Shown: piece after piece, positions 26,522-59,184 of the stretch
Layout of the letters: every line of letters starts with the position of its first letter
Position numbering within the stretch: position 1 is the first letter of the stretch
Source of the DNA: an uncultured Nitrospiraceae bacterium
GTDB lineage: Bacteria; Nitrospirota; UBA9217
NCBI GenBank assembly: GCA_964447405.1
Contig: CAYUSP010000001.1
Span: 495,909 to 559,908, forward strand
Reading direction: 5' to 3'
DNA length: 64,000 bases
Position numbers and translations under genes: made by a program
Notes under the pieces: model-generated
Told to the model about the DNA's origin: nothing
Seen by the model: only the letters and a program-made list of their open reading frames with translations
Databases searched by the model: none

Positions 26522-26533
26522 TGGGAGCGCAGT

Positions 26534-27124
26534 ATGCACGATAAACATGATCTTATCCCGCCTCACGGCGGATATCGCAAACTGCGTAGTTTTCAATCTG
26601 CTCAGATAGTATATGACGCTACTGTCGTTTTTTGCGAACGCTTTGTGGAAAAACGATCGCGCACTCATGATCAAATGGTGCAGGCAGCAAGGAGCGGCGT
26701 GCAGAATATCGCCGAGGGGAGCATGGCCTCTGCTACCTCTAAAAAGACAGAACTGAAATTAACCAATGTCGCCAGAGCAAGCCTGGAAGAGTTGCTGTTG
26801 GACTATGAGGACTTTCTTCGTCAGCGCGGTCTGCGTATTTGGGACAAGAATTCAACTGACGCGCTCGCTATCCGAAATCGTTATAAGTCGGATGAGTCGG
26901 ACAAGTCTGACAGGTCGGACGGGTCTGACATTTACGGCTTTAAAACAGCATCTGCGGAAATAGCTGCAAACACTCTCATTTGTCTCATCAATCAGGCCAG
27001 CTACCTACTCGCAAGGCAAATTCAAGAGTTAGAAAAATCATTCCTATCGGAAGGTGGATTCACCGAGAGACTTTACCGTCAGAGAATGGCAGCGCGAAAT
27101 CCACGCAACCGGAACAATAAATAA
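26534..27124 (+). CDS. Four-helix-bundle protein (23S rRNA intervening-sequence protein / DGR Avd family, PF05635-like) with an inserted (SDx)n repeat and a basic C-terminal tail
   Basis: Family motifs present: YRKLRSFQSAQIVYDATVVFCERF, RTHDQMVQAARSGVQNIAEG, SKKTELKLTNVARASLEEL. The SDESDKSDRSDGSD insertion is encoded by 9-nt tandem units. Confidence 0.6.
   Translation: MHDKHDLIPPHGGYRKLRSFQSAQIVYDATVVFCERFVEKRSRTHDQMVQAARSGVQNIAEGSMASATSKKTELKLTNVARASLEELLLDYEDFLRQRGLRIWDKNSTDALAIRNRYKSDESDKSDRSDGSDIYGFKTASAEIAANTLICLINQASYLLARQIQELEKSFLSEGGFTERLYRQRMAARNPRNRNNK
26888..26929 (+). repeat. Imperfect 9-nt tandem repeat (tcggatgag|tcggacaag|tctgacagg|tcggacggg|tctgac) encoding (S-D-x)4.5
   Basis: My direct read of the sequence inside the four-helix-bundle gene. 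Confidence 0.75.
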
Positions 27125-27168
27125 GATTATACGCACGGGGTTGGCTCAGAAGTAAAATTCAATCTACA

Positions 27169-29157
27169 ATGAAACACGTTAAAAAACTAACAAAAGAACA
27201 TCTTCGAATTCTAAGACAATCGTCAATCAAGTTTGCTTTGCTTTCTGAAGCACGAGTGATTGATATCATGCAGCATCCACTATATGTGGCGACTCTGAGC
27301 GACGCCGAGCTTGTAGAATTCCTTAAGATCGCAAATGCATTATATAGAGGCGGAAGCCCAATAATCAGCGATGCGGAATATGAATCTGTCTATTTAGAGG
27401 AGCTCATAAAACGCAGTCCTCAGCACGAGTTTCTTAAGAACGTCGAGCCAGAGTCCGCTTTTGAGGGTGCAAAACTTGCCTTGCCAGTTCAAATGTATTC
27501 TACCGAGAAAAGAACGTCACAAAAGAGCATCGAAAGCTGGTTGGAAACGAAGCAAAAAGAAGCAAAAAAAATTGGATTGGATGTAAACGAACTTCGTATA
27601 AGGGTGACACCTAAACTCGATGGGTTTGCGGCATACGATGACGGAAATATTCTCTATACACGCGGTGATGGCAGGAGAGGGACAGATATAAGCCGAGTTT
27701 TCCGCAGAGGATTGTCAGTAGCTGGAAATATACGAGGCAAAGGGCCTGGCGAAATAGTCGTCGATAGGGAGTATTTTGAAAAATATTTGTCAGATCATTT
27801 TGAAAATCCCAGAAATTTTCAAGCGGCGATAATAAAAGAAATGACATTAGACCCTTATGTTGATGAGGCAATAAAAGAAAAGGCTGCTCTTTTCGTTCCT
27901 TTTTCTGAATTGCCTGCAAAGGAATTATCTATCGTGGAGATTAAAGAGCGATTTGCGGAAGTTGTTGAGCAAGTATGGAATTCTGTTCCATATGATGTCG
28001 ATGGTGTGGTTTTGGAAATTACTGATCTGCGGTTTAAGGAATATGTTAAGTCCACAAGCCAGCATCATAGATGGCAAGTTGCGTATAAGACGAATGTAGA
28101 AAAAGCCCAAGTTACAGTGATCTCTGTGACACCACAAACATCGCGTGCAGGTCGAATTACGCCTGTCGCTGAATTGGAACCGACTAAATTATCGGGAGTG
28201 AAAATATCTCGTGCAACTGCACACCACTATGGCATGGTGAAAGCAAAAGGTATTGGTCCAAACGCAGTAATTGAACTTGTTAGAAGCGGAATGGTAATTC
28301 CAAAAATTGAAAAAGTAATCCGTAGGTCGACACCTCAAATACCTGAGAACTGCCCAAGCTGTAATACTCTACTCTCTTGGGATGGTGATAATCTGATATG
28401 TACCAATGTGGGTGGTTGTCCGGCACAAATTATCAATACGATTGAGCATTTTTTTAAAACACTGAGGAATGTGGACGGATTCGGCATGGCAACTATTGAA
28501 AAACTGTATACACAGGGAGTAAGAACTATTTACGACATTTATACGCTTCAAGAGGACATGCTAAGATCCTTTGGTTTTGGCGAAAAGCAAGCTCAAAATC
28601 TTATTTCAGAACTTAATAGAAGCAAGACAGAATCGCTTGAAGATTGGCGATTTCTAGCGGCTTTTGGCGCACATCGGCTTGGGTTGGCAAGTTGTGAACA
28701 TTTATTAAAGCACGTTAAACTTAGCGACATTTTTACGATTTCCGTTGATCAGATTGTTACGAGAAAGATATTTGCAAATAAGACTGCCGAAATTATCGTT
28801 AGAGGTCTTCGTAATATTAAGACCGAGTTTACTAGAGTGTTCGAATTAGGTTTTAATCTGGATTATTCTATGTTGCTTTCAGAAATGAGGACGCAAGGAG
28901 TTATAAGTCCGATTACTGGAAAACAATTAGTTTTTACAGGCTCAATGCTGAATGGATCAAGATTTGAAATGGAAAAGAAGGCTAGGCTTCTCGGGGCTAA
29001 AGTCGGAAAGACGGTAACTGGGAGAACGGATTTACTTATTACTGGCAAGGATGTTGGAGCCAAGAAAATAGAATTAGCAAAAGCGAAAGGTGTTAAGGTT
29101 ATTACAGAACAAGAATATATATATTTGATTGCAAAGTATGTGGTTACTCAGCATTAG
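27169..29157 (+). CDS. Divergent NAD+-dependent DNA ligase (LigA-type: Ia + adenylation KxDG + OB + Zn finger + HhH + BRCT), low GC
   Basis: TPKLDGFAAYDDGNILYTRGDGRRGTDIS (motif I and RGDG), PGEIVVDREYF, DVDGVV, WQVAYK, Zn finger CPSC…C..GGC, a C-terminal BRCT, and an N-terminal Ia-like segment ISDAEYESVY. GC is about 40% against a 56% background. Confidence 0.8.
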   Translation: MKHVKKLTKEHLRILRQSSIKFALLSEARVIDIMQHPLYVATLSDAELVEFLKIANALYRGGSPIISDAEYESVYLEELIKRSPQHEFLKNVEPESAFEGAKLALPVQMYSTEKRTSQKSIESWLETKQKEAKKIGLDVNELRIRVTPKLDGFAAYDDGNILYTRGDGRRGTDISRVFRRGLSVAGNIRGKGPGEIVVDREYFEKYLSDHFENPRNFQAAIIKEMTLDPYVDEAIKEKAALFVPFSELPAKELSIVEIKERFAEVVEQVWNSVPYDVDGVVLEITDLRFKEYVKSTSQHHRWQVAYKTNVEKAQVTVISVTPQTSRAGRITPVAELEPTKLSGVKISRATAHHYGMVKAKGIGPNAVIELVRSGMVIPKIEKVIRRSTPQIPENCPSCNTLLSWDGDNLICTNVGGCPAQIINTIEHFFKTLRNVDGFGMATIEKLYTQGVRTIYDIYTLQEDMLRSFGFGEKQAQNLISELNRSKTESLEDWRFLAAFGAHRLGLASCEHLLKHVKLSDIFTISVDQIVTRKIFANKTAEIIVRGLRNIKTEFTRVFELGFNLDYSMLLSEMRTQGVISPITGKQLVFTGSMLNGSRFEMEKKARLLGAKVGKTVTGRTDLLITGKDVGAKKIELAKAKGVKVITEQEYIYLIAKYVVTQH

Positions 29158-29171
29158 AAGGGAAATAACCA

Positions 29172-29507
29172 ATGAATGAAATTGAATTTCTTGTGCAAGG
29201 TTCGGCACAATTTCCTTATAAAGTTCGATTCATCCGAAAAGACCTCAATAGTATTTCAATTACTTGCACATGCCCTGCGGGAGAGATGGGGCAAAGCTGT
29301 AAACATCGTCTAAGAATTCTCAGCGGAAGTGATGAGGGGATTGTAAGTGCAAACAAGACGGAGATTGCAAGCATTAAAGAATGGCTACAAAGTACTGGAC
29401 TTGAAGATGCTGTGAAAGACACAGTTAATGGTGAAAGGTGTCTTGAAGAGGCAAAAAAGAAACTGTCACTTGCCAAGAAAAAACTTGCAGCACTCATGCA
29501 CGGGTGA
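29172..29507 (+). CDS. Small SWIM zinc-finger protein
   Basis: The CTCPAGEMGQSCKH motif fits CxCxnCxH. 111 aa, low GC, with a C-terminal Lys-rich coiled coil. Confidence 0.5.
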   Translation: MNEIEFLVQGSAQFPYKVRFIRKDLNSISITCTCPAGEMGQSCKHRLRILSGSDEGIVSANKTEIASIKEWLQSTGLEDAVKDTVNGERCLEEAKKKLSLAKKKLAALMHG

Positions 29508-29515
29508 TTAATAGC

Positions 29516-30361
29516 ATGCGTCTCGGTTTCCATGTTTCCATATCAGGCGGCTTCGCCCTATCAGTTCAGCGGGCATTCGATCTTGGCTGCACCTGTATGC
29601 AGATCTTCTGCCGCAATCCGCGCGGCTGGACCGTGAAACCGCTCGATGCCGATGACATTGCGGAGTTCAAAAAACTGCGGCAGCAGCACGACATCGGCCC
29701 TGTGTTCGTGCATACGAATTACCTGATCAACCTCGCCTCGTCCAAACCCGATCTGTATCAACGATCCATTGAACAGTTCGTCATCGACCTGGAGCGCACC
29801 GAGGCCCTCGGCGCCGAGTACCTGGTGACCCATCTCGGATCTGCAAGCGGCCAGGATGTGGAGTGGATGATTGCCCGGGTGTCGGATGCTTTGAACCTGG
29901 CCATGAAGCTCCACCCGCCCAAGGCGATGATCCTACTGGAAAACACAGCTGGTGAAAAAGGGGACATGGGGTACACGTTCGAGCAGGTTCAAGAGGTCAT
30001 ATCCCGTCTTGATGCTTCAAAGAGAATCGGTATCTGCTATGATACCTGCCATGGATTTGCTGCGGGTTACGATATCCGGTCAAAGAGTTTACTGGACGGG
30101 CTTGCAAAAATAATCGATTCCACGGTTGGTCTGGAACGTTTGAAGGGGATGCATTTGAACGACTGCCTCAGGGAATTCAACTCGCGTGTGGACCGCCATT
30201 GGCATGTCGGAGAGGGTAAAATCGGATTGGATGGATTCAAAGCGCTGCTCAATCACCCGGCATTCAGGGAAGTCCCCAAGATTATGGAAACGCCGAAAGA
30301 AACCGAGGAAGATGATCCGAAAAACATGAAAGTTGTCAGGTCGCTAATTCGAACTAATTAG
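29516..30361 (+). CDS. nfo: Endonuclease IV (AP endonuclease family 2)
   Basis: MRLGFHVSISGG start, TIM-barrel Nfo pattern with conserved His/Glu/Asp metal ligands (HTNYLINL, HLNDC). Confidence 0.85.
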   Translation: MRLGFHVSISGGFALSVQRAFDLGCTCMQIFCRNPRGWTVKPLDADDIAEFKKLRQQHDIGPVFVHTNYLINLASSKPDLYQRSIEQFVIDLERTEALGAEYLVTHLGSASGQDVEWMIARVSDALNLAMKLHPPKAMILLENTAGEKGDMGYTFEQVQEVISRLDASKRIGICYDTCHGFAAGYDIRSKSLLDGLAKIIDSTVGLERLKGMHLNDCLREFNSRVDRHWHVGEGKIGLDGFKALLNHPAFREVPKIMETPKETEEDDPKNMKVVRSLIRTN

Positions 30362-45873: not shown

Positions 45874-46002
45874 TAACAACATTGTAGATAAAGCGGTTTT
45901 TTGCCGCACAGAATGCTCTACACCAACCAGCAGCATCCCTGAGAAATGTATTATCGATCGCAGCATAGGCACTTCACAAAACATTGCAAGGGAGGGGGCA
46001 AT

Positions 46003-47250
46003 ATGTTCGTGAGATATTTCATGGCAGCTGTCTGGGCTTTCATCTCGCTGGTGATCCTCGTCGGTCAGGCAACGGCGGATGAGTTCCATTATACGAATTA
46101 TCTCATCGGCGACAGGGCGTCAGGCATGGGAGGTGCTTACACTGCGGTCGCCGATGATGCGTCTGGTCTCTATTACAATCCAGCAGGCATTGTTTATACA
46201 CAGGGGCGCAGCCTGTCGGCCAGTGTGAATGCCTACAACAAAACCACCAAAAAATATGAGCAGGTGATCGGCGGCAATGGCTGGGAAAGAAAATCCTCAT
46301 CGCTGCTCCCGAACTTTTTCGGTGTCATTCAGCCCATCGGGCGGTATAGGATCGGATTGTCCTATGCCGTGCCGGACTCCATTCAGGAAAACCAGGACCA
46401 GACCTTTTACGATCTGCCCTCGAAATTCGTGGGCATCACCGCGACTCAATACATTATCAATTTCAAGAACGAGGACAATACCTACAATTTCGGCCCCTCG
46501 ATTGCCGTGGACATCGATAAGGATTTTGCGGCCGGATTGACGCTTTACTACCATCAGCGTACCCACCAGCAGATCCTGAACCAGCGCATTAACCTGAGCA
46601 ACGGCAAGTACGAATGGACGAACTCCTACTATCTGCTGAATGAACGGGGCGTCAAGCCTGTTGCCGGTGTCATGTGGACGCCCGTGGAAAAAATGACACT
46701 CGGCCTCACACTATCCAAAACATTTCTTACGAATTCAAACGCCACAACGCATGACATTTTCAAGGACAGCAATTTTGATGGCAACACGCTTGTGGTTGAT
46801 GATACTTCCACCAATACAAAAAGAAAATACCCAACGCAAATTCGTGGAGGTTTTGCCTACTTTGTATCGAACGCGCTCTTATTTACTGCTGACGGAGCCT
46901 GGTACAGTAAAGTGAACGGAGAAGGGATTGATCAGCGCGTAAGCGTGTTCAATGGAGCGATGGGCGCTGAGTATTACCCTGACCGGAACTGGGCGTACCG
47001 GGCAGGCCTGTTCTCGGATCTTGCGAATACCCCGAGGATCAATGGAGATCGCTGGGGACAGGCTGAGCAGGTTGATATCTACGGGGCCAGCCTGAGCGCA
47101 ACCCATTTTACCCGAAACACATCCATCACCCTGGGAGGTAATCTGAGTCAGGGCCGCGGTAAGGCGCAACTGCTTGCCGGACAGACTGACCAGCAGCAGG
47201 TCTCTGTTTTATCATGGACGCTCTTTTTGTCGTCGTCCTACTCGTATTAG
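46003..47250 (+). CDS. Outer-membrane beta-barrel, FadL/TodX (OMPP1) family
   Basis: Signal peptide, the N-terminal hatch motif GDRASGMGGAYTAVADDASGLYYNPAG (NPA), and an aromatic-rich C-terminal strand. Confidence 0.65.
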   Translation: MFVRYFMAAVWAFISLVILVGQATADEFHYTNYLIGDRASGMGGAYTAVADDASGLYYNPAGIVYTQGRSLSASVNAYNKTTKKYEQVIGGNGWERKSSSLLPNFFGVIQPIGRYRIGLSYAVPDSIQENQDQTFYDLPSKFVGITATQYIINFKNEDNTYNFGPSIAVDIDKDFAAGLTLYYHQRTHQQILNQRINLSNGKYEWTNSYYLLNERGVKPVAGVMWTPVEKMTLGLTLSKTFLTNSNATTHDIFKDSNFDGNTLVVDDTSTNTKRKYPTQIRGGFAYFVSNALLFTADGAWYSKVNGEGIDQRVSVFNGAMGAEYYPDRNWAYRAGLFSDLANTPRINGDRWGQAEQVDIYGASLSATHFTRNTSITLGGNLSQGRGKAQLLAGQTDQQQVSVLSWTLFLSSSYSY

Positions 47251-47303: not shown

Positions 47304-50165
47304 ATGAAAAAACTTAAGGTATTGTTTATCGCGGCCGGACTGCTGCTTCTTTTCGCATTTATTTTGACCGGTTGCAGGGGCAAGAGCTCGGATACATCCG
47401 GGCAGGCGCAGACCACCGGAAGCGACCAGCCGTCATTCAATGTGGCGGGGTCAAAACAATTGGTTGCTCTTTCAAATACTGTCGCACCCGCTACATCAAC
47501 ATCAGGAGCGCGAGGATTCCTCGCTGCGGCTTTCGGAAGTAAAGAACCGTTTCAGTACCGGATCGTGAGCCAGGGCCTGACTGATCAGGAGATACGGTCA
47601 CGAGCCAAAGGCCTGGTTCCTTCGTTTTATCGTGCCGCGGCCACATCGCAGCAATTCGGAACGAACCTTCTGGCCGTGGATGAAAACGGGAATGCGACAC
47701 TGGCGATCAATTCGAACTATCTGGTCAAGGTCATGTACTCAGTGACGGACCCGAAGGGCGAATATGTCTATCTGGCGCTGGATCCTGGGTTCATCAAGCC
47801 TGATGGGAACGATTATACTCAATTTATAGGCCAGAATAATTGCGCCTTCTACCGCATCAAGATTGCGGATAACTCCTTCACCTGTGTGCAGAATGGCGTT
47901 TATGTGCAGCCTATGGATGATGTGTATCTGCAGCGTGTCAGCAGCAGTCAGAAGCCGATACAATTTGACAGCAGAGGTAACGTATATTTTGCGGCAACGA
48001 CCTTCAATCGTACCTGCGATAATTCCGGCGTCTGCACCATGGTTGCTGCTGATTGGAACCCCCGTATTTACCGGCTGACGACATCAACGGGCGCCGTGAT
48101 CGCGTTGACGCAGGACAACCAGAAAATAAGCTATTTTATGACTCTTCAGACCGGTGAGATCGCGTATCAGTCCATTGACGTGAACGGTGATATTGCACTC
48201 TACTTGTGGCAGGCAGGTATCGACCCGGTCATTAACCCGAACGGCAAGACCATCAACCTGACCGGCAGGACCGTCGGCGTGGATTATTTTGCCGTGGATA
48301 CCTATAATACGGTCATGTGGGGCGGATGGACAGAGAATGGCATCCGCTTTGCGCGGCCTTCAGCAAGCGGATTGATAGAAAAGGCCAGTCTTGATACCAA
48401 CATATTCAAGACTCGTACTAATTTTAATAATAACTTTGCAAACTATCCGGCTCTGCGCGTAATCATCGGAGATGATGGAAAACTCTACGGTGTATTCCAA
48501 GACTTCGTAAGAGAACCGGACCCGAACGACCCTAATAAAGATGTCTATTTCAGCAACTTGAAGGTGAATCAGGTGCTGCCCTATCTTTCAATCCCCAAGA
48601 TCCAGGTAAAAATTCAAATCAAGGATATTTTTTCTGAAGTGTATGGGGGCAAAAAGACATGGCAGCAGTGGATGGGATACACACCTTTTCAGGTTTCCCA
48701 GGGGTTCATTTACTATAAGGAACCAGTCGAAAAGATCGGATATGGCAATCATGACGTAATCAAGATGGTCAGCCTTGCGGACCGGCGCACTATACCGCTG
48801 TTGGTGAATAATTCCTATGAGGTCTACACCTGGCGGTTGAGGGGCGACAAACTCTACTTCTCTGCCCTCGACCTGGATCAGACAACCGTGATCGCCGGAG
48901 AAATAAACACGACCATTGTAAAAAGCAATCCCCTGGCGGACCCGCTCTCCACGTTCATGACGGTTAAGAGGATTGCGTCCGCGCTTGGGGCAACCAGCAG
49001 AGTCCAGGATATTGAGGCATTGTCCGCTCTGCCGACGCTGGATGTTTCCGCAGCTCCGGTGGTGAAAGAGATCGCGGTCAGTCCGGAAAATCTCTACTCG
49101 GCAAGCATCGAGTTCAACAAGCTCATGAACCCGACGTCGGTCGAGAACAATATGACCTTTACTGATGCAGCCGCTACATCAATATCGACCATGAAGGTAT
49201 GGATCAATAATTATCTCCATTTGATCCCTGATCTGGATGTGAATAACGCCACGACGCCACCGACAGCGAATGATGCTTTGCTCGACCTGACCCATACGAC
49301 ACCGTTATCATTTGGGACAACCTATTCCATTGCCTTCGGCGCCGCTTCCGCTGATCTGTCCGGAACGACTCTCGGTGCAGTAGCAGCGAAGTCATACACA
49401 ACTCGTCCGGAAAACGGATGGTTCGTTTCCTCGGACAAAGTGGGGAAATTCTATGGCAGCAAGAAAGAATCGGACGGAACCATGCCCCAGGAAAGCTATC
49501 AGCTCTCAACAGGAGGGACCGGCACTGCGCCGATTGCCACTCTGTCCACTGATTTCCGTTTTCAGTTCAGGGTAAAAAACCAGACCTGGGGAGGCCTGGG
49601 AATTTCGTATTATGACAAAACTTCTGTAGCCAAACCATTCGTGGAAGTTGCCTTACGGGATTACATGGAAATATCGTACGATGCTGTGCAAACATCGGGA
49701 ACCACGACCTGGAATGCCGCGCACGCCTGGGCAAGAACCGCGGATTACAATTCACAGCTCTGGAACGGTGAATGGATGTATTACCGCATAGATGTATATG
49801 GTTCGAACTGCGTGATCTCCTACTCAGCTACAGAGGGTGGAACGTATACGGTTATCCCCGTGGAATATTACGATTACACGCTAGGTGCCTATGCGACCAA
49901 GGACAACGTACGGAATGTAATGTCGAGAACGGCAGGGCATGATTTCCGGCTCATCTTGACAGGAAGCGAGGCAGTTGATCTGGATGATATGAAGCTTTGG
50001 AACCTGAGTGCGTCGGGCATCTTGGGCACGTTGATCTGGTCTGAAGATTTTACATCCGGAACCTTGCCCGCCTACTTAAAATACGAAAATAGGGTCAGTA
50101 CTACTGACAGTAATACACCGGTTTCCGTTAATAACCCCTATTATGATTTTTATCCATACCTGTAG
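47304..50165 (+). CDS. Large (953 aa) predicted surface lipoprotein, function unknown
   Basis: The lipobox is LTGCRG. It is beta-rich with no recognisable catalytic motif and sits between the FadL-like paralogs. Confidence 0.6.
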   Translation: MKKLKVLFIAAGLLLLFAFILTGCRGKSSDTSGQAQTTGSDQPSFNVAGSKQLVALSNTVAPATSTSGARGFLAAAFGSKEPFQYRIVSQGLTDQEIRSRAKGLVPSFYRAAATSQQFGTNLLAVDENGNATLAINSNYLVKVMYSVTDPKGEYVYLALDPGFIKPDGNDYTQFIGQNNCAFYRIKIADNSFTCVQNGVYVQPMDDVYLQRVSSSQKPIQFDSRGNVYFAATTFNRTCDNSGVCTMVAADWNPRIYRLTTSTGAVIALTQDNQKISYFMTLQTGEIAYQSIDVNGDIALYLWQAGIDPVINPNGKTINLTGRTVGVDYFAVDTYNTVMWGGWTENGIRFARPSASGLIEKASLDTNIFKTRTNFNNNFANYPALRVIIGDDGKLYGVFQDFVREPDPNDPNKDVYFSNLKVNQVLPYLSIPKIQVKIQIKDIFSEVYGGKKTWQQWMGYTPFQVSQGFIYYKEPVEKIGYGNHDVIKMVSLADRRTIPLLVNNSYEVYTWRLRGDKLYFSALDLDQTTVIAGEINTTIVKSNPLADPLSTFMTVKRIASALGATSRVQDIEALSALPTLDVSAAPVVKEIAVSPENLYSASIEFNKLMNPTSVENNMTFTDAAATSISTMKVWINNYLHLIPDLDVNNATTPPTANDALLDLTHTTPLSFGTTYSIAFGAASADLSGTTLGAVAAKSYTTRPENGWFVSSDKVGKFYGSKKESDGTMPQESYQLSTGGTGTAPIATLSTDFRFQFRVKNQTWGGLGISYYDKTSVAKPFVEVALRDYMEISYDAVQTSGTTTWNAAHAWARTADYNSQLWNGEWMYYRIDVYGSNCVISYSATEGGTYTVIPVEYYDYTLGAYATKDNVRNVMSRTAGHDFRLILTGSEAVDLDDMKLWNLSASGILGTLIWSEDFTSGTLPAYLKYENRVSTTDSNTPVSVNNPYYDFYPYL

Positions 50166-50311: not shown

Positions 50312-51592
50312 ATGTACAATAAAATCTTCGGATCCATTCTCTTTATATGCGTGAGCGTGTTCATCGCGGGACCGGCAACCGCCGATGATTACCACTATAC
50401 CAATCTTCTCATTGGCGACCGGGCATCGGGAATGGGTGGAGCGTACACCGCGTTGTCCGATGACGCGACGGGCCTCTATTATAATCCTGCGGGCATAGCC
50501 TACACAGCGGGACGCAGTATTTCCGCGAGCGTCAATGCCTACTATAATATCGAGAAAAAATACAAGAGCGTGATCGCCGGGAACGGATGGGTACGGACGT
50601 CCTCCTCGCTTCTGCCGAACTACTTCGGCGTGGCGCAGCCGGTGGGAAAGTTCAAGGTCGGCATTTCCTACGCGGTGCCTGAATCTCTTATGGCCGACCA
50701 GGACCAGGTTTTCACAGATCTGCCGCTGAGTTCGTCCATTCAGACCTATAATCCGGGCGCTCGCATATCAAGCTATCTCATCAATTTCAACGAGGAGAGC
50801 AATACTTACAACTTCGGTCCTTCGATTGCCACGGAGATATCGGACAAACTGTCCGCCGGGCTTACCCTTTACTATTACCAGAGAAAGAACCAGTGGATAT
50901 TGAACCAGCTCATAAAAACGACCACTGCGGGCTACGAATGGACAAATGACTATTATCAAGCGGAAGAGTGGGGGCTGCGGCCGATCCTTGGATTCATGGC
51001 GTCGCCGGTGAATGGTATCTCTATTGGACTGGCGATTTCCAAGGTCCTTATCCAGGGTTCAGAAACGAAGTTTCAGCATTCCTATCGTCGCGAAAATATC
51101 GCCATAGACAATAATCCGAGCAATAGCAATGTCGTGGACCTGCCAGACGGGTTTCTCAGTCTCAGCGAGAAACGTAAATATCCGACCCAGGTCAGCCTTG
51201 GCATTGCCTGGTTCGCTTCGCAGAGCCTGCTGGTCACCGGAGACCTCAATCATTTTACCGCGGTAAGCAGCCAGAACGCCGAAGCGGTGAATAATATTGC
51301 CATTGGCACAGAATATTATCTGGATAGAAACTGGGCTTTGCGGGGTGGATTTTTTACGGATTATGCCAACACGCCAAAGCTTAAATCTGGCACCACGAAC
51401 CAGAATGAACATATAGATCTCTACGGCCTGACTACATCCATCAGCCATTTTACCCGGAACACCTCCGTGACCCTGGGCGGTGGATATACGACGGGTAATG
51501 GCAAAGCGCAGATCATCGGCGGAAGTTTTAATATGCAGGATGCGTCATCCGAAGGATGGATGTTCTTCCTCTCTTCGTCATATTCGTATTGA
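50312..51592 (+). CDS. Outer-membrane beta-barrel, FadL/TodX family (paralog of the 46003 gene)
   Basis: It shows a near-identical N-terminal hatch (GDRASGMGGAYTALSDDATGLYYNPAG) and the same C-terminal SSSYSY. Confidence 0.65.
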   Translation: MYNKIFGSILFICVSVFIAGPATADDYHYTNLLIGDRASGMGGAYTALSDDATGLYYNPAGIAYTAGRSISASVNAYYNIEKKYKSVIAGNGWVRTSSSLLPNYFGVAQPVGKFKVGISYAVPESLMADQDQVFTDLPLSSSIQTYNPGARISSYLINFNEESNTYNFGPSIATEISDKLSAGLTLYYYQRKNQWILNQLIKTTTAGYEWTNDYYQAEEWGLRPILGFMASPVNGISIGLAISKVLIQGSETKFQHSYRRENIAIDNNPSNSNVVDLPDGFLSLSEKRKYPTQVSLGIAWFASQSLLVTGDLNHFTAVSSQNAEAVNNIAIGTEYYLDRNWALRGGFFTDYANTPKLKSGTTNQNEHIDLYGLTTSISHFTRNTSVTLGGGYTTGNGKAQIIGGSFNMQDASSEGWMFFLSSSYSY

Positions 51593-51703: not shown

Positions 51704-54100
51704 ATGAGGATGTTACTCACTCGACTTGCTTCGCTTCTCCTGCTCCTTCTGTGCAACACTTCTCCGGTCCTCGCCGCCCCCCACATTAACAGAACCATCC
51801 CCGAGCCGATTGAACTTCCCGGGAGAACACTGGAAGAGCGTGCTGCCCAGAGTATTCAACCGAGCATGATGCTTGCCGCTCCCGTGTCCTACACATCACC
51901 CACGACGGTGAATGTGCTTTTTTTGCGCGTGGAATTCCAGCCGGAACCGAATCCATCCGGTGCACGGGTTACAGGCAACGGACTCTGGAATTCCTATTTG
52001 CCGCCTGCTGTTACAGGCAGTAGTAATCCAGACCACTGGGTAACCAACGCGAAAATGAAATTCACGGACTATTGGAAAGAGGTTTCCTACGGACTGCTTA
52101 CGGTTGTTGTCGATCTTTCGACAAGAGTATACCAGCTTCCGCAGACAATGGCATACTACGCAGGCGGCACCGCAATTTCCATTGAAAATATCATCTACGA
52201 CAGTATCACTACTGTCAATACGGACGCAACGACAACAATCAATTTCGCGCAGTACGATGGCGTATTCATCGTGCACGCGGGGGTGGGGCAGGAGACCGAT
52301 ACCACGGGCGTGGCGCCGAACGACCTGTGGTCCCTGTATTATTCGGGTGGTAGCAGCATCTGCAGGAACGCAGCAGGATCAACCTGCCTATCGACAAAAC
52401 TCAAGGACGGCCGGCCTTTGAGTGAAGCCATTATTATGCCGCAAACCGACTCACGGACGGGGCTGGTGGTTGATCCGCTCGGTGTGTACGTGCATGAATT
52501 CGGCCACTGGCTGGGTCTGCCTGATCTGTATTGCGTCAGCACGTCCTCTCCCTGCACCACAGAAGGCGTCGGCATGTGGAGCCTGATGGATTACGGCAGC
52601 TACAATGCGAGTGCATCAACCATACGCGGCAGCTCACCGGCACATTTGGACGCCTGGAGTTTGCTGAAACTCGGCTGGGTGTCACCAGATGTGCTTAATC
52701 CTGCACAGCCCGATCGCGGTGCAATGAGTCTGTTTCCTGTCGCGATTGTACCGGCTCCGGTAAGCGGAGCTGCGGGTACGAACGTACTCAAGGCGCAGGC
52801 GTCAACCACAAACGCAAATCAGTATTTCCTGATTGAGAACCGGCGGAAAATCGGATTTGACGAAGGACTTCCCGGTGAAGGATTGCTCGTCTGGCTTATA
52901 AACCAGGACGTGATCAATGCGGCGCTTGCCACCAATACCGTAAATAGCAGAGCTTCAGCACCTGGAGTTAAACTCATCGAAGCTGATGGAGACTGGGCGC
53001 TGCAAAACGCGGCTTTGCATGACTTTGGCAGCGCGGGCGATCCTTTTCCCGGTTCCAGGGGAAACACCACGCTTTCACCCATGACCAGCCCGTCCAGCAT
53101 CCCGTATACCGCCTTTGGTTGGCTGAATATCAGGAGCATCGTGGACGGATCGTCGGCAATCTCGTTCAAGATCGGTTTCGGCCCACGTGCGCCCGTCAAC
53201 CTCAGATTGGATAGGGCAGCGAAGCAATTAAGTTGGGATGCAAATACCGAAATTGATATCAATCATTATCTAATTTATAAGAATAATACATCCACACCTC
53301 TTGTTTCTGTTCCGACGACCAGCGCCGCGAACTATGTGGACAGTACGTTTACCTCAACAGATGTCTACATGGTCACCGCTGTAGATACGAACGGCAATGA
53401 GTCCCAGGCAGCTGTAATAGCGCCGGTCATCCTGGTCAGTCCGCTAACCTTGACCTTCAGCGACTCGGTGACCAGCAATACTGTAAACGTACTTAATAAT
53501 GGAAACGCGGACCTTGTTTTCTCAGCCATGTCCTTGAACGGTTCAAATTCAGCGGAATTCAGCTACACGAGTGCATGCCCATCCACACTAACCATCGCAG
53601 CATCATGTCAGATTACCATATCATTTGCCCCAAGATCGACAGGATCAAAATCCGCTTCCTTTACCATTTCCTCCAATGATCCGCAATCACAAGCAGTTTC
53701 AGTTCAACTGAGCGGAAACTTGACGCAAGCCAGCCAGCCCGCGTCCAATGGGGGAGGCAGTTCATCCAGATCGCCCTGTTTTATCGCAACGGCCGCTTAT
53801 GGATCGTATCTTGACCCCCATGTTGAGGTCCTGAGGCAATTCCGCGACGGTTATCTTATGACGAATATGCCTGGAAGAGCATTTGTGAAATGGTATTATC
53901 ACTATTCACCGCCAATTGCTGACTATATAGGCAGTCATGAAGTGCTCAGAACAGCGGTCAGGTGGTCGCTTGCGCCTCTGATCTTGGGGATTGAATATCC
54001 CTGGCTAATAATGCTGGTGATGATTCTTGGGAGCGGAATGCTATTGTATCGGAAACGCATCTCAAACATGAGGTTATCGCGTTCTTGCCATGGAAAATAG
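51704..54100 (+). CDS. M6 (immune inhibitor A-like) family metalloprotease with FN3/Ig-like domains and a conserved C-terminal anchoring module
   Basis: [16 protein letters not shown] (HExxH…PDxY, the M6 signature). The C-terminal module [10 protein letters not shown]…LRQFRD…[12 protein letters not shown] + TM + RKR spans 53777-54100. Confidence 0.75.
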
Positions 54101-54150
54101 AGCAAGTAATCAAAAAATAGTCCGACCTGTTAATTCCAGTGAATAGTACC

Positions 54151-54179
54151 TTGACTTTGTTATGATGTAGAGATAAAAT
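54151..54179 (+). promoter_or_regulatory. Near-consensus sigma70 promoter TTGACT-17-TAAAAT
   Basis: Read directly, in the AT-rich gap upstream of the lipoprotein gene. Confidence 0.5.
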
Positions 54180-54379
54180 TGATTACACTTTATAACAAAA
54201 GCTGGTGAATATATTCCTAAGGACAGGCTGGTTCCCTGCACTATTTACCAATCCGTATTAACGTTATGGCATCTGTTAATTGTCCGATTATGTAACATAT
54301 TTTAAAAGAACAGGAGGTGATGGCTGTATCTTTTTGCAACACCCGCAGTCAAATTATCACATATCTTACAGGAGGATAC

Positions 54380-56299
54380 ATGAAAACTTTCGGAAAAATA
54401 GCTTTAGTAGCAATATTGATCGTCACTTTTGCCATGTTGTTTTCGGCATGCAGCAGCAAGAGCAGTGATAGCACCACCTCTGGTACCAGCGGCGGAACCG
54501 TAAGCGCCATTACCACCTCAACACAGGGCAGGCAGGCTGCTGCATCCTCCACGCAAAGCGCCAGCATGTCGCAGGGATCCGGCCAGACCTTCCGCAATCT
54601 CGGCAACGTTGGTTTGACAGCCACCGGAAACGATGTGCCGCACTTCAGGACTTCCAATACTTTTAAATCCAAAGGCGCTTTGGCAAAAGTTGAGAAAGTA
54701 TCAGCTAAATTCGCCAAATCCAACGCTGCTATGGCAGCTGCTCAGTCAATGAGAAAAGCGGTCAACGCGGCTAAGGCCTCTATTTCAAGCGCGCCCAGTT
54801 CAACCAGCGGCACGATAAACTGTGCTGATGGTGGAAGCGTCGCCTATACTGGTACTATTGACTTGACCGCAGGTACCTTTGGCTTGGATCTCACATTTAG
54901 CAGCTGCCGCGAAGACGATTCGCAGACGGGCGGTTTATACAAATTGTCCGCAACAGAAACATCGACAAGCCTCACAATGAATATCACGCTCGGTACGACT
55001 GCAACGCCATTCACCATACTCGACTACAGCGCCGGCTATTCAGCGTTGATTGCGAATACCGCCATGAGTGCTTTCAGCCTGACCGAAACGTTAACCGTTT
55101 CCGCTACCAGCATATCACTTGACATGAAGGCAGACGGCACCATGTCATATCATGATTATTTCACGGGCGAAGACTACTCGCTTCAGTTCACGAACAATTA
55201 TGATCAACTTGTGTCGATCGCGACAGCTGGTTCCGCAACAAATCCCAGCAGCGTTACCCTCGCCTTTACCACGAACGGTGATTTCAAGGAAGTATGGAGC
55301 GCTCCAACCAGCACGACATCCGCTGCAGCAGCCAGGGCGGTTGCCAGCGGCCCATCAGTGACCCATTCTGTATCTGCTTCGTTCACTGCCTTGAAACTTG
55401 ATCTCACCATCGGTGGTTTGACAAGCACAGTAACTTCAACAGTCCCCTATGAAGAAGTAACCCTGAACGGCCAGTTCTCAATAACGTTCTCACCGGAGAC
55501 CTGCATGAGCGGATCGTTCAAGTTTGTGACGAATACACCTATAAGAGCTGGACTTGCTACAGGCAACACCTATCAGGGCAAGATCACGATCAACGACGCG
55601 ACCGTTATTACATATAATGCCGACGGTACAGTTACGGTAACTACCGCTGCTGTAGATACAAAGTTTAACAGCAAGGCAGAGATGGTTCCTGATGAATGCG
55701 AGATAGCGGAGATGGGGGGTGACACAGCGCCATCATCAACAGCAGTTTCCAGCAACGGCACCTATACCGCTACAGGCAATGTGACCATTACCCTGACCTG
55801 GAATAAGGTCAATGATATGGACCTCCATTTGGCGCACTGGGTAACGAAGCCGACAAGTAATGCAAGCCTGCCGAGTATATCTTCATCCGGAGTCACGACC
55901 AACAGCGATTGGCACCTCTATTTCGGCACTGGCCCCGGTGGAGCATGTTCAAACAGCAATTACATAGGTACATCAACAAGTATGATCGCAGAGCTTGATA
56001 TAGACAAGTGTTCCTCGGTAGGGTATGGTCCGGAGCATATCACTATGACTACCATGCAGACCGGTTACTATATCGTATTTGTTGACGCATACACTGCAAG
56101 CGAAGCAACGGTAAACGATCTGTCTATTCAGGTTGGTGATAAAGTATTCACCTATCCGGCGCATACGTTCCAGTCAGATCTTGATGCCAACTGGATCGCA
56201 GCAGCATTCAGCGTAAGCGCTAGCGGTGTTGTAACATTAGAAACACCCATGACGAATAGCATCAATTACACTGGTGCGATGAGAGCACCTAAATTCTAG
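54380..56299 (+). CDS. Ser/Thr/Ala-rich predicted surface lipoprotein (about 640 aa), function unknown
   Basis: GGAGGA Shine-Dalgarno sequence. The lipobox is LFSACSS. It is low-complexity and T/S-rich throughout. An upstream in-frame ATG at 54320 also has a Shine-Dalgarno sequence. Confidence 0.6.
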   Translation: MKTFGKIALVAILIVTFAMLFSACSSKSSDSTTSGTSGGTVSAITTSTQGRQAAASSTQSASMSQGSGQTFRNLGNVGLTATGNDVPHFRTSNTFKSKGALAKVEKVSAKFAKSNAAMAAAQSMRKAVNAAKASISSAPSSTSGTINCADGGSVAYTGTIDLTAGTFGLDLTFSSCREDDSQTGGLYKLSATETSTSLTMNITLGTTATPFTILDYSAGYSALIANTAMSAFSLTETLTVSATSISLDMKADGTMSYHDYFTGEDYSLQFTNNYDQLVSIATAGSATNPSSVTLAFTTNGDFKEVWSAPTSTTSAAAARAVASGPSVTHSVSASFTALKLDLTIGGLTSTVTSTVPYEEVTLNGQFSITFSPETCMSGSFKFVTNTPIRAGLATGNTYQGKITINDATVITYNADGTVTVTTAAVDTKFNSKAEMVPDECEIAEMGGDTAPSSTAVSSNGTYTATGNVTITLTWNKVNDMDLHLAHWVTKPTSNASLPSISSSGVTTNSDWHLYFGTGPGGACSNSNYIGTSTSMIAELDIDKCSSVGYGPEHITMTTMQTGYYIVFVDAYTASEATVNDLSIQVGDKVFTYPAHTFQSDLDANWIAAAFSVSASGVVTLETPMTNSINYTGAMRAPKF

Positions 56300-56316
56300 C
56301 CGTAATTCGGACTCAG

Positions 56317-56346
56317 GCGGGGCCTACGTGCCCCGCCTTTTTTTTG
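56317..56346 (+). terminator. Rho-independent terminator
   Basis: ggcggggc-ctacgt-gccccgcc followed by tttttttt. Confidence 0.8.
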
Positions 56347-57024
56347 ACCATGAATAAACTATTTATTGCGTTAATAAGCGTACTTGTTCTTATCCCTCAT
56401 ACTCATGCATCAGGCATGGAATCCCATGACCTAAGCCTTATCTATTTTTATTCAACCACCTGTCCGCATTGTAAAGCTGTAGAACCTACGGTAATAGCTT
56501 TGAGTAAGGAAATGAGTATTCAGGGTGTGGTTTTCGGCAAGGGCGTACCAGCACCCATGCCATTTACAGTGCAGAAAGGTGATAAATCGGCTTTACGCAA
56601 GTATAGCCTGGAAGGTGTTCCAGCGCTGGTAGTTCTTCAAAAAGAAACAGTCAGGCATATCTTTCGCGGCGAACATAATATACGCGCCTCACGGCTATTC
56701 CTGCGTGGTTTAGCAAAAGGGGCTTTAACCGTGACAGAAGCGGTTAGCCGCGGGCAACAAAAGGATGTAATCCTGACTGGATGGATAGAGGGCGTTGGAG
56801 AGTATTTCAAAGACAAACAGTTCATATTTACAGACCGTAAAAAGAGCATTATGATAAGACCGTGGCTGCCCCTTGAAGCGGTGCGATCGCCTGTAGGAAA
56901 TAAGCGGCCGAGGCTCATGTCAGATGTAATGGATAAGGCAGTTGCACTGCGCGGTGAGTTGCAAATGAATGATGGGACTTTCTATTTTACAGTAAAAGAA
57001 GAACTAAACCTCGAATCGCAATAA
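56344..57024 (+). CDS. Periplasmic thioredoxin-fold protein (CPHC active site) with an extra C-terminal domain
   Basis: Signal peptide; YFYSTTCPHCKAVEP; about 110 aa of uncharacterised C-terminal sequence. Confidence 0.65.
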   Translation: MTMNKLFIALISVLVLIPHTHASGMESHDLSLIYFYSTTCPHCKAVEPTVIALSKEMSIQGVVFGKGVPAPMPFTVQKGDKSALRKYSLEGVPALVVLQKETVRHIFRGEHNIRASRLFLRGLAKGALTVTEAVSRGQQKDVILTGWIEGVGEYFKDKQFIFTDRKKSIMIRPWLPLEAVRSPVGNKRPRLMSDVMDKAVALRGELQMNDGTFYFTVKEELNLESQ

Positions 57025-57045
57025 CGTTTCCGAGATAAACCTATT

Positions 57046-59184
57046 TTGATGCAATCAAAGGATATCGTCGCGAATCCGCGAAAAACACGCATGAATTCAT
57101 CCCTTATTTCTCGAATTATCCCTGTCTTCGGATTAAGCCGTCTTGCCTTAGCACTGACAGCTCTTAACCTGGTCCTGTTATTATTCCCCCTGAATATTCA
57201 AGCAGCACCACACATCTTCAAAACAAAAAAAGAACCTGTCGTCCAACCAGGGCCATCATTAACAGCGAGAATGACAGCACGCCGGCCTGAGGGCTATTAT
57301 CACGCGCCCGCACTCTATCCGGCTGCAGTCAATATTCTGCTTCTCCGGGTCGAGTTCCAGGGAGAAGCAAATCCGTCCGCTTCGACAGTGACGGGGTCAG
57401 GGCTGTGGAATAACCCGCTGTACGCGCGTAATGGTGATCCTGATTATTGGGTCAATGCAGCCAAGAACAGTTTTATCAACTACTGGACAGAAGTCTCTTA
57501 CGGCAAATTGCTGGTTTCCATTGATACCTCAACAGTAGTTTATCAGCTGCCCGGCACCACCGCATCATACGGTAATGAATCAAATTCAGCACTTGAGAAC
57601 CTGATCTATGACAGCATTTCGCTTGCATCGATGGATCCTGATATCGCAACGCGGCCAACCTTCTCAAACTATGATGCGGTGCTGATCGTACATGCCGGAG
57701 TTGGTGAGGAATCTGATGTGGCGGGTGATACGCCCAATGACCTCTGGTCTCTCTATTATGCTGATACCTGCATTTCAAAGAATGCCACGGGCAACGGCTG
57801 TCTTGCGATAACTCTCAAAGACGGAAGGCCGATTACCGAGGCCATCATCATGCCGCAAACGGACTCACAGGATGCATTCACCATTGACCCTTTGGGCGTC
57901 TATGTGCATGAGTTCGGCCACTGGCTTGGCCTTCCGGACCTGTACTGCACAGGTATGATCTGTTTTCCCGACGGGGTGGGAAAATGGAGCCTGATGGGCG
58001 ACGGCATCTATAATCCTGATCCCGCACTCTGTCCTGCCGCCGGAACACAATGTTTGTACGGGAGTTCACCGGCGCATTTGGATGCATGGAGCAAGGTTTA
58101 TCTCGGATGGGTAGCGCCTTTGACCGCTCTTATGCCAACGGACTTGGGTGTTCATAACTTTCAGGCTGTAGAGAATACACCGGATATCATCAAGGTCCAG
58201 GCATCATCAACAGCGGATACGCAATACTTTCTTCTGGAAAACCGTCAAAGGACGGGATTTGACAAGGGCCTGCCTGGCCACGGTCTGCTGATCTGGCTGG
58301 TTGATGACGTTGTCGTGGCGAACAATATGGCTTCTAATACGATCAACAACAGCAGCTTTCATCCCGGTATCAAAGTCGTGGAAGCTGACAATGACGGGAA
58401 TCTGCAATCTTATGGCTGCGCACCGCCTAATGATTGCGGCAGTTCAGGAGATACGTTCCCGGGTTCGACAGGCAATATCGCTTTGACTCCAATAACATTG
58501 CCATCATCAAATCCCTACTCGTCATCTTCATGGGTGAACATCAGAAACATCACTGAAGCAGCTTCACCTATTGCGGTTGTATCAGCATCTATTGGGTTCG
58601 CGCCGCTTCCTCCGGGAACGCCAGGAATGAATGCAAAAATTGTCAGCTGGCCTTCCCAGTCAGATCCCGAGGTCACCGGCTATAACGTTTATAAGAATGG
58701 CGCTTTGATAGCCACAACTTCCACGACGTCATATCATGATCTCCTTGCTCGAAGATCGGATATCTACCAGATAACGGCAATAGATGCCACGGGAGATGAA
58801 TCCGGCTTTTCCGGCCAGGTGGTGGCGAATATGCAGCTGCAGATCGACAACACGAGTTCACAGTGCTTCATCGCCACTGCTGCATATGGTTCCGCTCTCG
58901 ACCCGCATGTTATGGCGCTGCGAACATTCCGCGACCGATTCCTTCTTACCAATGCGCCGGGCAGCGTGCTGGTATCTCTGTACTATCGGTACTCACCGCC
59001 CCTGGCGGATTATATAAGCAGACACGAGGACATGAGAACCATGTCACGGGTATTGCTTACACCTGTGGTGTATGCGGTTCTCTATCCGTCAGCAGCCATC
59101 CTGCTTGCACTCTGCTCAGTCGCCTGGTTGATGATCGTAAGAAAGCGATTGGTGCCGGAAGACGTCCGTAGGGATCGCACTTGA
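57046..59184 (+). CDS. M6 family metalloprotease paralog with the same C-terminal module
   Basis: [16 protein letters not shown] again. Module [10 protein letters not shown]…LRTFRD…[12 protein letters not shown] + TM + RKR spans 58864-59184. Confidence 0.75.

Follow-up and report, generated by a model that had tools for sequence, protein, structure and literature searches.

The best-described C-terminal sorting signals, LPXTG (with sortase), PEP-CTERM (exosortase), GlyGly-CTERM (rhombosortase) and PGF-CTERM (archaeosortase), sit at the C-terminus of secreted passenger proteins, behind a low-complexity linker. These tripartite signals include a hydrophobic helix followed by Arg/Lys residues, serve many diverse substrates, and have "choice-of-anchor" domains upstream of them. 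InhA and PrtV (MEROPS family M6) are released soluble proteases. The two subjects meet in a stretch of 64,000 nucleotides from an uncultured Nitrospiraceae bacterium (contig CAYUSP010000001.1), the whole of which is called the window below. Two paralogous M6 metalloproteases, A (open reading frame (ORF) 51704-54100) and B (ORF 57046-59184), end there in the same tail, which an earlier sequence-only reading of the window took to be a membrane-anchoring or processing domain that no known sorting signal explained. The tail proves to be a CFI box, a domain already catalogued as NF041770, followed by a predicted transmembrane (TM) helix and an Arg/Lys cluster, and it probably tethers the two proteases to the membrane.

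The tails of A and B are ordinary members of the catalogued family and not a new signal. The NCBIfam model NF041770, "CFI_box_CTERM" (cut-off 40 bits), matches A at 109.2 bits and B at 102.5 bits, in both cases over positions 1-69 of 69, and both tails have the features of that family, namely the CFIATAAYG start and the LRxFRD, GR, YY and SPP motifs. The box opens with Cys-Phe-Ile and is C-terminal in both proteins, starting at residue 692 of 798 in A and residue 607 of 712 in B. The model spans the 69-residue box only; the TM helix and the basic cluster lie outside it. The product name "CFI-box-CTERM domain-containing protein" is already applied to relatives in RefSeq and GenBank. The two tails match each other with a BLASTP E value of 6e-28, and a six-frame hidden Markov model (HMM) scan of the 64 kb found exactly two copies, at E 1e-45 and 1e-41, the next match having E 0.29.

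When the isolated tails were scanned against NCBIfam (E<=0.1), NF041770 was the sole significant match, one tail also giving a stray match to an fnt transporter model (E 0.081). None of the models for LPXTG, PEP-CTERM, GlyGly-CTERM, PGF-CTERM and similar signals matched at that threshold, which bears out the earlier view that the tail is distinct from sortase, exosortase and type IX secretion system (T9SS) signals. Pfam gave no family match on the tails. Full-text searches of a literature library found no paper naming the CFI box or NF041770, and among the papers listed for "choice-of-anchor" none had a title or abstract concerned with the CFI box; literature matches to the string ATAAYG were degenerate DNA primers only. 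A sequence-profile search of the PDB with the tail returned nothing below E 0.13, and a Foldseek search of BFVD returned nothing significant, so that these searches found no solved structure of the CFI box and no solved or predicted structural relative.

The sequence-only reading had drawn the module correctly. Its boundaries are right (Cys692 at nucleotide 53777 and Cys607 at nucleotide 58864), every motif that it listed is present, and the distance from the Cys to the hydrophobic stretch, given as about 70 residues, is 69. Its interpretation was partly right, in that the module exists, is found widely and has to do with membrane anchoring. What fails is the claim of novelty, because the domain was already curated as NF041770 and is used by RefSeq; the module itself is no discovery, and proteins of this kind already receive its name from the annotation pipeline. 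That reading had also raised the case of a named sorting domain with a known partner, and here the search gave half of an answer: the module has a name, and no known partner was found.

The description of A and B as paralogous M6 proteases was likewise sound. Both pass the M6 model TIGR03296 (127.5 bits for A and 124.8 for B; cut-off 110.8) and the Pfam model PF05547, Peptidase_M6 (45.6 and 39.5 bits; cut-off 22), and they are 47% identical over 563 residues by BLASTP. The zinc-binding motif HEXXHXXGXXD, shared with InhA and PrtV, is intact in both as HEFGH, and H264, E265, H268 and D274 (A numbering) are invariant across 50 homologues. Judged by these matches, A and B are M6 metalloproteases that keep the catalytic motif. 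Among solved structures, Bacillus InhA (4yu5, E 7e-5) is the nearest in sequence. A Foldseek search with the full-length model of A returned Ig-like and fibronectin type III matches only and no M6 match; A carries an Ig-like "choice-of-anchor D" domain that is absent from B, and Foldseek matched this domain to HYDIN/VesB/PapD-like Ig folds. Partial similarity over the M6 region was also found to NF052323, an M6-like inactivated metalloprotease that is T9SS cargo (111-112 bits; cut-off 600), but unlike that cargo the tails of A and B have no T9SS C-terminal domain and their HEFGH motif is not inactivated.

A and B differ from InhA and PrtV in bearing the C-terminal CFI box and TM anchor. Of the 120 nearest homologues in the M6 subfamily, 118 carry the box and the remaining two are truncated proteins, so that the architecture is fixed there. 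The names of the homologues place the window in or close to Nitrospirota/Thermodesulfovibrionales. Anchor swapping among M6 orthologues, considered as evidence that the tail is equivalent to other sorting signals, was uninformative, since 118 of the 120 retain the box.

The distribution of sequence conservation singles out the box within the tail. The tail had been described as less diverged between the paralogues than the protease domains, and this holds for the box (43 of 69 residues identical, or 62%, versus 47% for the protease parts) but not for the whole tail of about 105 residues, which is 48% identical and includes a poorly conserved TM segment and cytoplasmic tail. Averaged over pairs from 50 family members, identity is 0.70 in the box and 0.61 in the catalytic domain, and it falls to 0.25 in the TM helix and 0.13 in the cytoplasmic tail. 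The contrast between the box and the last two values argues that what is constrained is a folded domain, as opposed to a motif bordering the TM helix. Two residues at the outer edge of that helix are nevertheless kept in most of 122 tails, Tyr in 97 and Pro in 106.

Structure prediction points in the same direction. AlphaFold2 (AF2) models the isolated tail with a mean predicted local distance difference test score (pLDDT) of 83.6, with a short helix that covers IATAAY and is followed by three longer helices and the TM helix. The full-length model of A (pLDDT 83.8, predicted TM-score 0.74) has the same helices, at residues 694-699, 705-716, 722-744, 746-764 and 766-795. The box has a pLDDT of 83-91 in that model and is set off from the confidently modelled passenger by a linker (residues 676-690) below 50. 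The box is thus predicted to be an independently folded four-helix domain.

The hydrophobic stretch of both tails is 22-23 residues long and is followed by RKR. More generally, a TM segment followed by at least two Arg or Lys residues occurs in 374 of 447 related tails, and among 273 proteins with long passengers 198 have a hydrophobic segment at the N-terminus. Hydropathy and the positive-inside rule, with signal peptides read from the sequence, would give A and B a type-I topology, in which the passenger and box are outside the cytoplasmic membrane and the basic tail is inside.

The residue that opens the box is invariant in every member seen. The consensus ahead of it is GGG-C, with Gly directly before the Cys in 89 of 122 TM-bearing tails; A has SRSP-C and B has TSSQ-C, and in other carriers the 12 preceding residues are 35% Gly and 19% Ser. 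The Cys does not fit a lipobox ([LVI][ASTVI][GAS]C), since Cys692 and Cys607 follow a polar linker with no h-region. In A the other cysteines form plausible pairs (220/228, 277/284 and 625/635) that leave C692 over, and in B four close pairs leave C607 over. An even number of passenger cysteines is found in 85 of the M6 homologues (116 in all) and in 51 of the 76 other carriers, and a second Cys is absent from 70 of 76 boxes. The box Cys therefore looks unpaired, with no conserved partner in the same molecule.

Further evidence on the role of the box comes from proteins that carry it without a membrane anchor. A tblastn search of annotated plasmids and phages found the box on 43 plasmid records and one phage-plasmid, and it is this collection that established the occurrence of the box in archaea. 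Among 15 of these members that were examined none has a signal peptide, and 14 have no TM segment after the box. A and B, which do not differ in structure from the NF041770 family, have the TM helix and basic cluster that most environmental relatives also have and that those 14 lack. All ten of the scanned proteins without TM segment and signal peptide pass NF041770 at 67-90 bits with full coverage. The partner domains that Pfam identified in the scanned TM-less proteins are CSD, Mrr_cat with WYL, TPR, CAP and RTX. The architectures include a cold-shock domain, zinc ribbon and box in Burkholderia and Comamonadaceae, Mrr_cat, WYL and box in the archaeon Haloquadratum, TPR and box on 5-kb Acinetobacter plasmids, zinc ribbon, helical repeats and box on a Clostridioides phage-plasmid, and CAP and RTX proteins with the box in Paracoccus. 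Acinetobacter lwoffii WP_086045005 is one of the TM-less members. In one haloarchaeal protein the order is box-RRRR-TM, so that its box would lie on the cytoplasmic side, beside the membrane.

An alignment of the TM-bearing and TM-less classes keeps the Cys, F/Y, G, LRxxRD, GR, YY/YW and P positions and an Arg in the last helix. The terminal helix of the TM-less forms is basic and amphipathic, and it aligns with helix 4 of the AF2 model. The residue before the Cys varies in these forms (M, G, Q, P, R, S, A or N). Because the full length of the HMM occurs on proteins with neither signal peptide nor TM segment, the box is not itself an anchor, nor is it an obvious processing signal. Of the two roles that the sequence-only reading had offered, anchoring should be credited to the TM helix and basic cluster.

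The plasmid collection also yielded two recurrent gene arrangements. Proteins of 139-141 residues with a CFI box and no TM segment are encoded on plasmids of Acidovorax, Rhodanobacter, Xanthomonas and Methylophaga, some of them typed as conjugative. A gene for a PD-(D/E)XK/Cas4-like nuclease lies directly 3' of the box gene and often overlaps it (pairs at L090 2809-3749, L091 2809-3773, L097 2312-3916 and L089 2821-3793, the neighbour in L089 being annotated as hypothetical), and the pair looks like a conserved mobile-element module. The other arrangement, found at L085 3650-4234, L088 2614-3255 and on seven more Burkholderia plasmids, encodes a cold-shock domain, a CxxC...CxxC zinc ribbon and the CFI box. 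The cold-shock part of the L085 and L088 proteins has a below-cut-off score to the retron Se72 effector model, and genes of this type sit among Lar anti-restriction, integrase and PRTRC genes.

The suggestion that the module defines a wider family of carriers is borne out. A profile built from 26 tails found 29,265 representatives at 50% identity (E<=1e-3), 22,871 of them at E<=1e-10, and a scan for CFIATAAY in one genome per species gave at least 587 confirmed matches; a protein-database search with a divergent tail gave two. Among the CFIATAAY matches listed are Nitrospirota, Geobacteraceae, Syntrophales, Gammaproteobacteria, Phycisphaerae and Campylobacterota, as well as one metagenome-assembled genome labelled as a Firmicute (the label is taken as given, the bin assignment being unverified). 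NF041770 matched all 60 carriers that were sampled. Their passengers are diverse, including MXAN_6640-type metalloproteases (10), choice-of-anchor D (10) and choice-of-anchor U (9) domains, and further DUF11, PKD and Ig repeats, NHL/SBBP propellers, S8 subtilases and M6 proteases.

Some carriers are of unusual build or context. Carrier genes occur in tandem in L036, L037 and L064. Two proteins, P0127 (2009 residues) and P0128 (1142 residues), have two CFI-box/TM modules each, with a lipoprotein-type or ordinary signal peptide after the first basic cluster, and look like merged adjacent carrier genes. Three others (P0164, residues 455-732; P0245, residues 565-842; P0229, residues 368-648) have an extra domain of about 280 residues beyond the usual end of the protein, giving the in-frame order passenger, CFI box, TM segment, R/K cluster, second signal-peptide-like segment and extra domain. 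The basic cluster serves at the same time as the n-region for the second signal. The extra domain has an aromatic end (listed as F, L or I), looks like an outer-membrane barrel and weakly matches DUF3187; no relative of it was found in the window or in 80 carrier loci. In Geobacteraceae, choice-of-anchor-D proteins of 1,000-1,470 residues with the CFI box (L009, L011 and L044, and also L032) are encoded directly 3' of genes for a PilQ-like secretin and a lipoprotein of about 195 residues. L044 is from the cultured Geomonas oryzae S43.

If the tail were a sorting signal, one might expect a cognate enzyme to be encoded near some of the carriers, and a co-occurring processing enzyme had in fact been suggested. 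The survey of 80 carrier loci, which took in as much as 10 kb to either side, gave no recurrent candidate. No neighbour family was shared beyond generic two-component regulators, which make up the largest neighbour cluster, and passenger-specific small proteins. The 59 polytopic membrane proteins among the neighbours include no recurrent exosortase, rhombosortase, sortase or CPBP family, all being transporters, and the stretch of the window that was annotated (15.6-64 kb) likewise yielded no family of these types.

These observations of family membership, domain order, conservation profile and distribution are best accommodated, at a probability of roughly 0.55, if the tails consist of a CFI box, a stop-transfer TM helix and an Arg/Lys cluster, A and B being membrane-tethered type-I M6 proteases in which the box is a separate membrane-proximal module. 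Both proteases would be exported via Sec and lose their signal peptides. The catalytic domains, and in A also the Ig-like domain, would then lie in the periplasm on a disordered Gly/Ser linker, which would join them to a four-helix CFI box lying on the outer face of the cytoplasmic membrane. The single TM helix would span the membrane, RKR staying inside, so that helix and basic cluster would be the anchor and the box an autonomous module and not a short cleavage motif of the sortase type. The box itself would most likely dock on the membrane surface, self-associate or both, its conserved Arg and Tyr residues lying at the interface. Docking or self-association is a conjecture, favoured because the only thing that the TM-bearing, tail-anchored and amphipathic-ended forms could have in common is the membrane surface.

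Several points weigh against this model of tethered proteases. The proposed topology is derived from hydropathy and the positive-inside rule and is computational throughout, and the AF2 prediction is of a monomer, which leaves docking or oligomerization conjectural. The box is the most conserved part of the carriers, above even the catalytic domain, and its Cys is invariant even in cytoplasmic members; both facts suggest a specific partner or chemistry beyond a passive tether. The choice-of-anchor domains upstream of the box in at least 10 of the 60 carriers, together with the conserved Tyr-Pro, resemble true sorting signals. Finally, a processing enzyme may be encoded in trans, the survey having covered gene neighbourhoods. 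The invariant Cys and the very high conservation are more than a passive tether accounts for, and three other explanations were therefore retained.

One of these is that the tail is a cleavable C-terminal sorting signal, in which a dedicated membrane enzyme would read the box or the Tyr-Pro, remove the TM helix and transfer the protease to lipid, wall or surface. The tail does resemble the known signals in its C-terminal location after a Gly/Ser linker, in the succession of TM helix and basic cluster, and in having Tyr and Pro conserved at the outer edge of the helix. Its passengers are many and unrelated, secreted, and hydrolytic or adhesin-like; of the 60 carriers, 10 have a choice-of-anchor D domain directly upstream and 9 a choice-of-anchor U domain; genomes have several carriers, some of them in the tandem arrays noted above; and the "-CTERM" of the family name is in the style of such signals, as we read the curators' choice. 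However, the conserved element is a folded, helical domain of 69 residues that begins about 70 residues upstream of the TM helix, unlike the motifs of 3-6 residues at the helix edge. The full-length box also occurs on TM-less cytoplasmic and tail-anchored proteins, out of reach of any periplasmic or surface enzyme, and the carriers belong to diderm bacteria, the Firmicute-labelled genome of unverified binning and archaea, which have no envelope structure in common. No candidate enzyme was seen near the 80 loci or in the annotated part of the window. Conservation of the box on either side of the membrane, and in both archaea and bacteria, makes a compartment-specific sortase recognition site unlikely, and the explanation as a whole improbable.

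The invariant Cys is central to the other two explanations. It could be the working part of the box, forming an intermolecular disulfide in the periplasm (to give a covalent dimer or to join a partner) or receiving a covalent modification, a reaction catalysed for both proteases by the DsbA-like thioredoxin encoded next to them. The Cys has no partner within the box, the passenger cysteines are usually even in number, and a secreted thioredoxin with a C-[PS]-[HQ]-C motif lies beside the M6-CFI genes in five of five genomes, including a minimal two-gene locus. Yet 31 of the 116 M6 homologues have an odd number of passenger cysteines, and the Cys is no less invariant in cytoplasmic TM-less members, a setting in which stable disulfides are hardly to be expected. 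The thioredoxin falls outside all neighbour clusters of the 80 other loci, its sole copy there (in L063) adjoining a Nitrospirota carrier that is not confirmed as M6. It is thus a neighbour of M6-CFI genes and not of CFI-box genes in general, and since it was not seen beside the other kinds of carrier sampled, it more likely serves the disulfide-rich M6 passenger, with its three or four predicted disulfide pairs, than the CFI Cys. A working Cys of this kind is improbable as well. Less probable still, by analogy with Hint or phage tail-spike domains, is a self-processing or intramolecular-chaperone module in which the first-position Cys would attack the preceding bond (an N-to-S acyl shift) and free the passenger. 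An invariant nucleophile as first residue of a C-terminal domain, right after a flexible linker, would suit this, as would the presence of the box in any compartment, which a self-contained reaction would allow. The best BFVD match was a phage "intramolecular chaperone auto-processing domain", though this was not significant (E 1.6, probability 0.8, TM-score 0.48). Against it, the tails have no Pfam or NCBIfam match to Hint, intein or Peptidase_S74, known autoprocessing folds do not resemble the small all-helical bundle, Gly mostly precedes the Cys in the TM-bearing class but TM-less members vary at this position, and no conserved constellation of His, Thr or Asn spans both classes.

The two proteases belong to a locus that is conserved in relatives (Table 1). 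The syntenic order is CHASE2 cyclase, SH3, M48, FadL/PorV-like barrel, M6-CFI, a protein of about 660 residues, thioredoxin-like protein, M6-CFI, followed by MazG (on the opposite strand) and GlnD; the minimal version is an M6-CFI gene with the thioredoxin-like gene only. The start that the gene caller chose for the thioredoxin (56416) would drop its signal peptide, which the probable start, ATG 56350, restores. All five genomes (the window, L082, L083, L084 and L063) conserve the C-[PS]-[HQ]-C motif as well as the C-terminal domain. The extension of about 110 residues matches no family and reads GW..RGEYF...F.LTDR...I.V.PWLPLEA.KSP...RPRLMSDV. None of the window's proteins joined the neighbour clusters of the 80 other carrier loci. 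The position of the putative lipoprotein between the proteases is occupied in L082 and L083 by genes for proteins of 661 and 641 residues. Upstream of protease A, the two FadL-type barrels flank a secreted protein of 953 residues without a family match (47304-50165). Their N-termini weakly match PorV/PorQ models (38 and 44 bits, far below the cut-off of 90), a likeness to a T9SS setting; no other T9SS marker was seen, and the organism is not a member of the Bacteroidota.

Table 1. Coordinates of the two M6 proteases, their domains and neighbouring genes (window positions unless a locus is named)
Feature	Position	Strand	Remarks
M6 metalloprotease A	51704..54100	+	798 aa; ORF including stop
Signal peptide of A (inferred from sequence)	51704..51778	+	aa 1-25, then AP; hydrophobic aa 7-26 and AxA-like site
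M6 catalytic domain of A	52061..52894	+	aa 120-397, TIGR03296 envelope
HEFGH of A	52493-52507	+	aa 264-268
Ig-like "choice-of-anchor D" domain of A	53420..53686	+	aa 573-661; NF012200, 56.4 bits (cut-off 45); PF22544
Disordered Gly/Ser linker of A	53729..53773	+	aa 676-690; AF2 pLDDT <50
CFI box of A	53777..53983	+	aa 692-760; first residue is the invariant Cys692
TM segment of A	53984..54049	+	aa 761-782; Kyte-Doolittle maximum 2.4; conserved YP at outer edge
Cytoplasmic basic tail of A	54050..54097	+	RKR at 54050-54058
M6 metalloprotease B	57046..59184	+	712 aa from TTG 57046; 711 aa from ATG 57049, the start given by gene callers
Predicted signal peptide of B	end at about aa 54	+	IQA, then AP
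M6 catalytic domain of B	57463..58296	+	aa 140-417
HEFGH of B	57907-57921	+	
CFI box of B	58864..59070	+	aa 607-675; first residue Cys607
TM segment of B	59071-59139	+	Kyte-Doolittle maximum 2.6
Basic tail of B	within 59071..59181	+	RKR at 59140-59148
Ser/Thr/Ala-rich putative lipoprotein	54320..56299	+	659 aa, between the proteases; no Pfam/NCBIfam match
Secreted DsbA-like thioredoxin (CPHC)	56350..57024	+	PF00085; C-terminal extension of about 110 aa
Thioredoxin homologues	L082 16656-17363; L083 15196-15909; L084 11996-12709; L063 114-788		
FadL/PorV-like outer-membrane barrel	50312..51592	+	directly 5' of protease A; PF03349, 36.5 bits (cut-off 29.7); syntenic in L082 and L083
Second FadL-type barrel	45946-47250	+	paralogous to 50312-51592

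Two further features were observed. In L083 a resolvase gene interrupts the syntenic locus (L083 7303-9556 and 16052-17611), and a TnpB/Cas12f-like gene stands where the window has the second M6-CFI protease; the second paralogue therefore appears to be dispensable. In the window, positions 26000-30000 have a G+C content of 0.44-0.47, against about 0.51-0.55 elsewhere, and contain a 23S-rRNA-IVP-family gene (26534-27124) and an ORF resembling NAD-dependent DNA ligase with unusually weak domain scores (27169-29157). No tRNA gene and no Rfam family was found in the window.

The CFI box is thus a very large family and the most conserved part of its carriers, with an invariant Cys. What this analysis adds is that the box is independent of the TM helix and of the side of the membrane. 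Its presence on cytoplasmic proteins without a TM helix, and in the opposite orientation, means that whatever it does must work on both sides of the membrane; this argues against a sortase-type system and lowers the odds of classical sorting. A bolder interpretation, offered as a long shot, is that the box is a compartment-independent module whose first-residue Cys would have a chemistry not yet described, such as self-cleavage, the attachment of a thioester or lipid, or metal bridging within an oligomer. It would tether secreted enzymes and would regulate or localize cytoplasmic proteins of mobile elements across Bacteria and Archaea, and the TM-bearing class might feed an undiscovered sorting pathway. 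For this genome, the finding is of two predicted membrane-tethered periplasmic M6 proteases in a conserved envelope locus.

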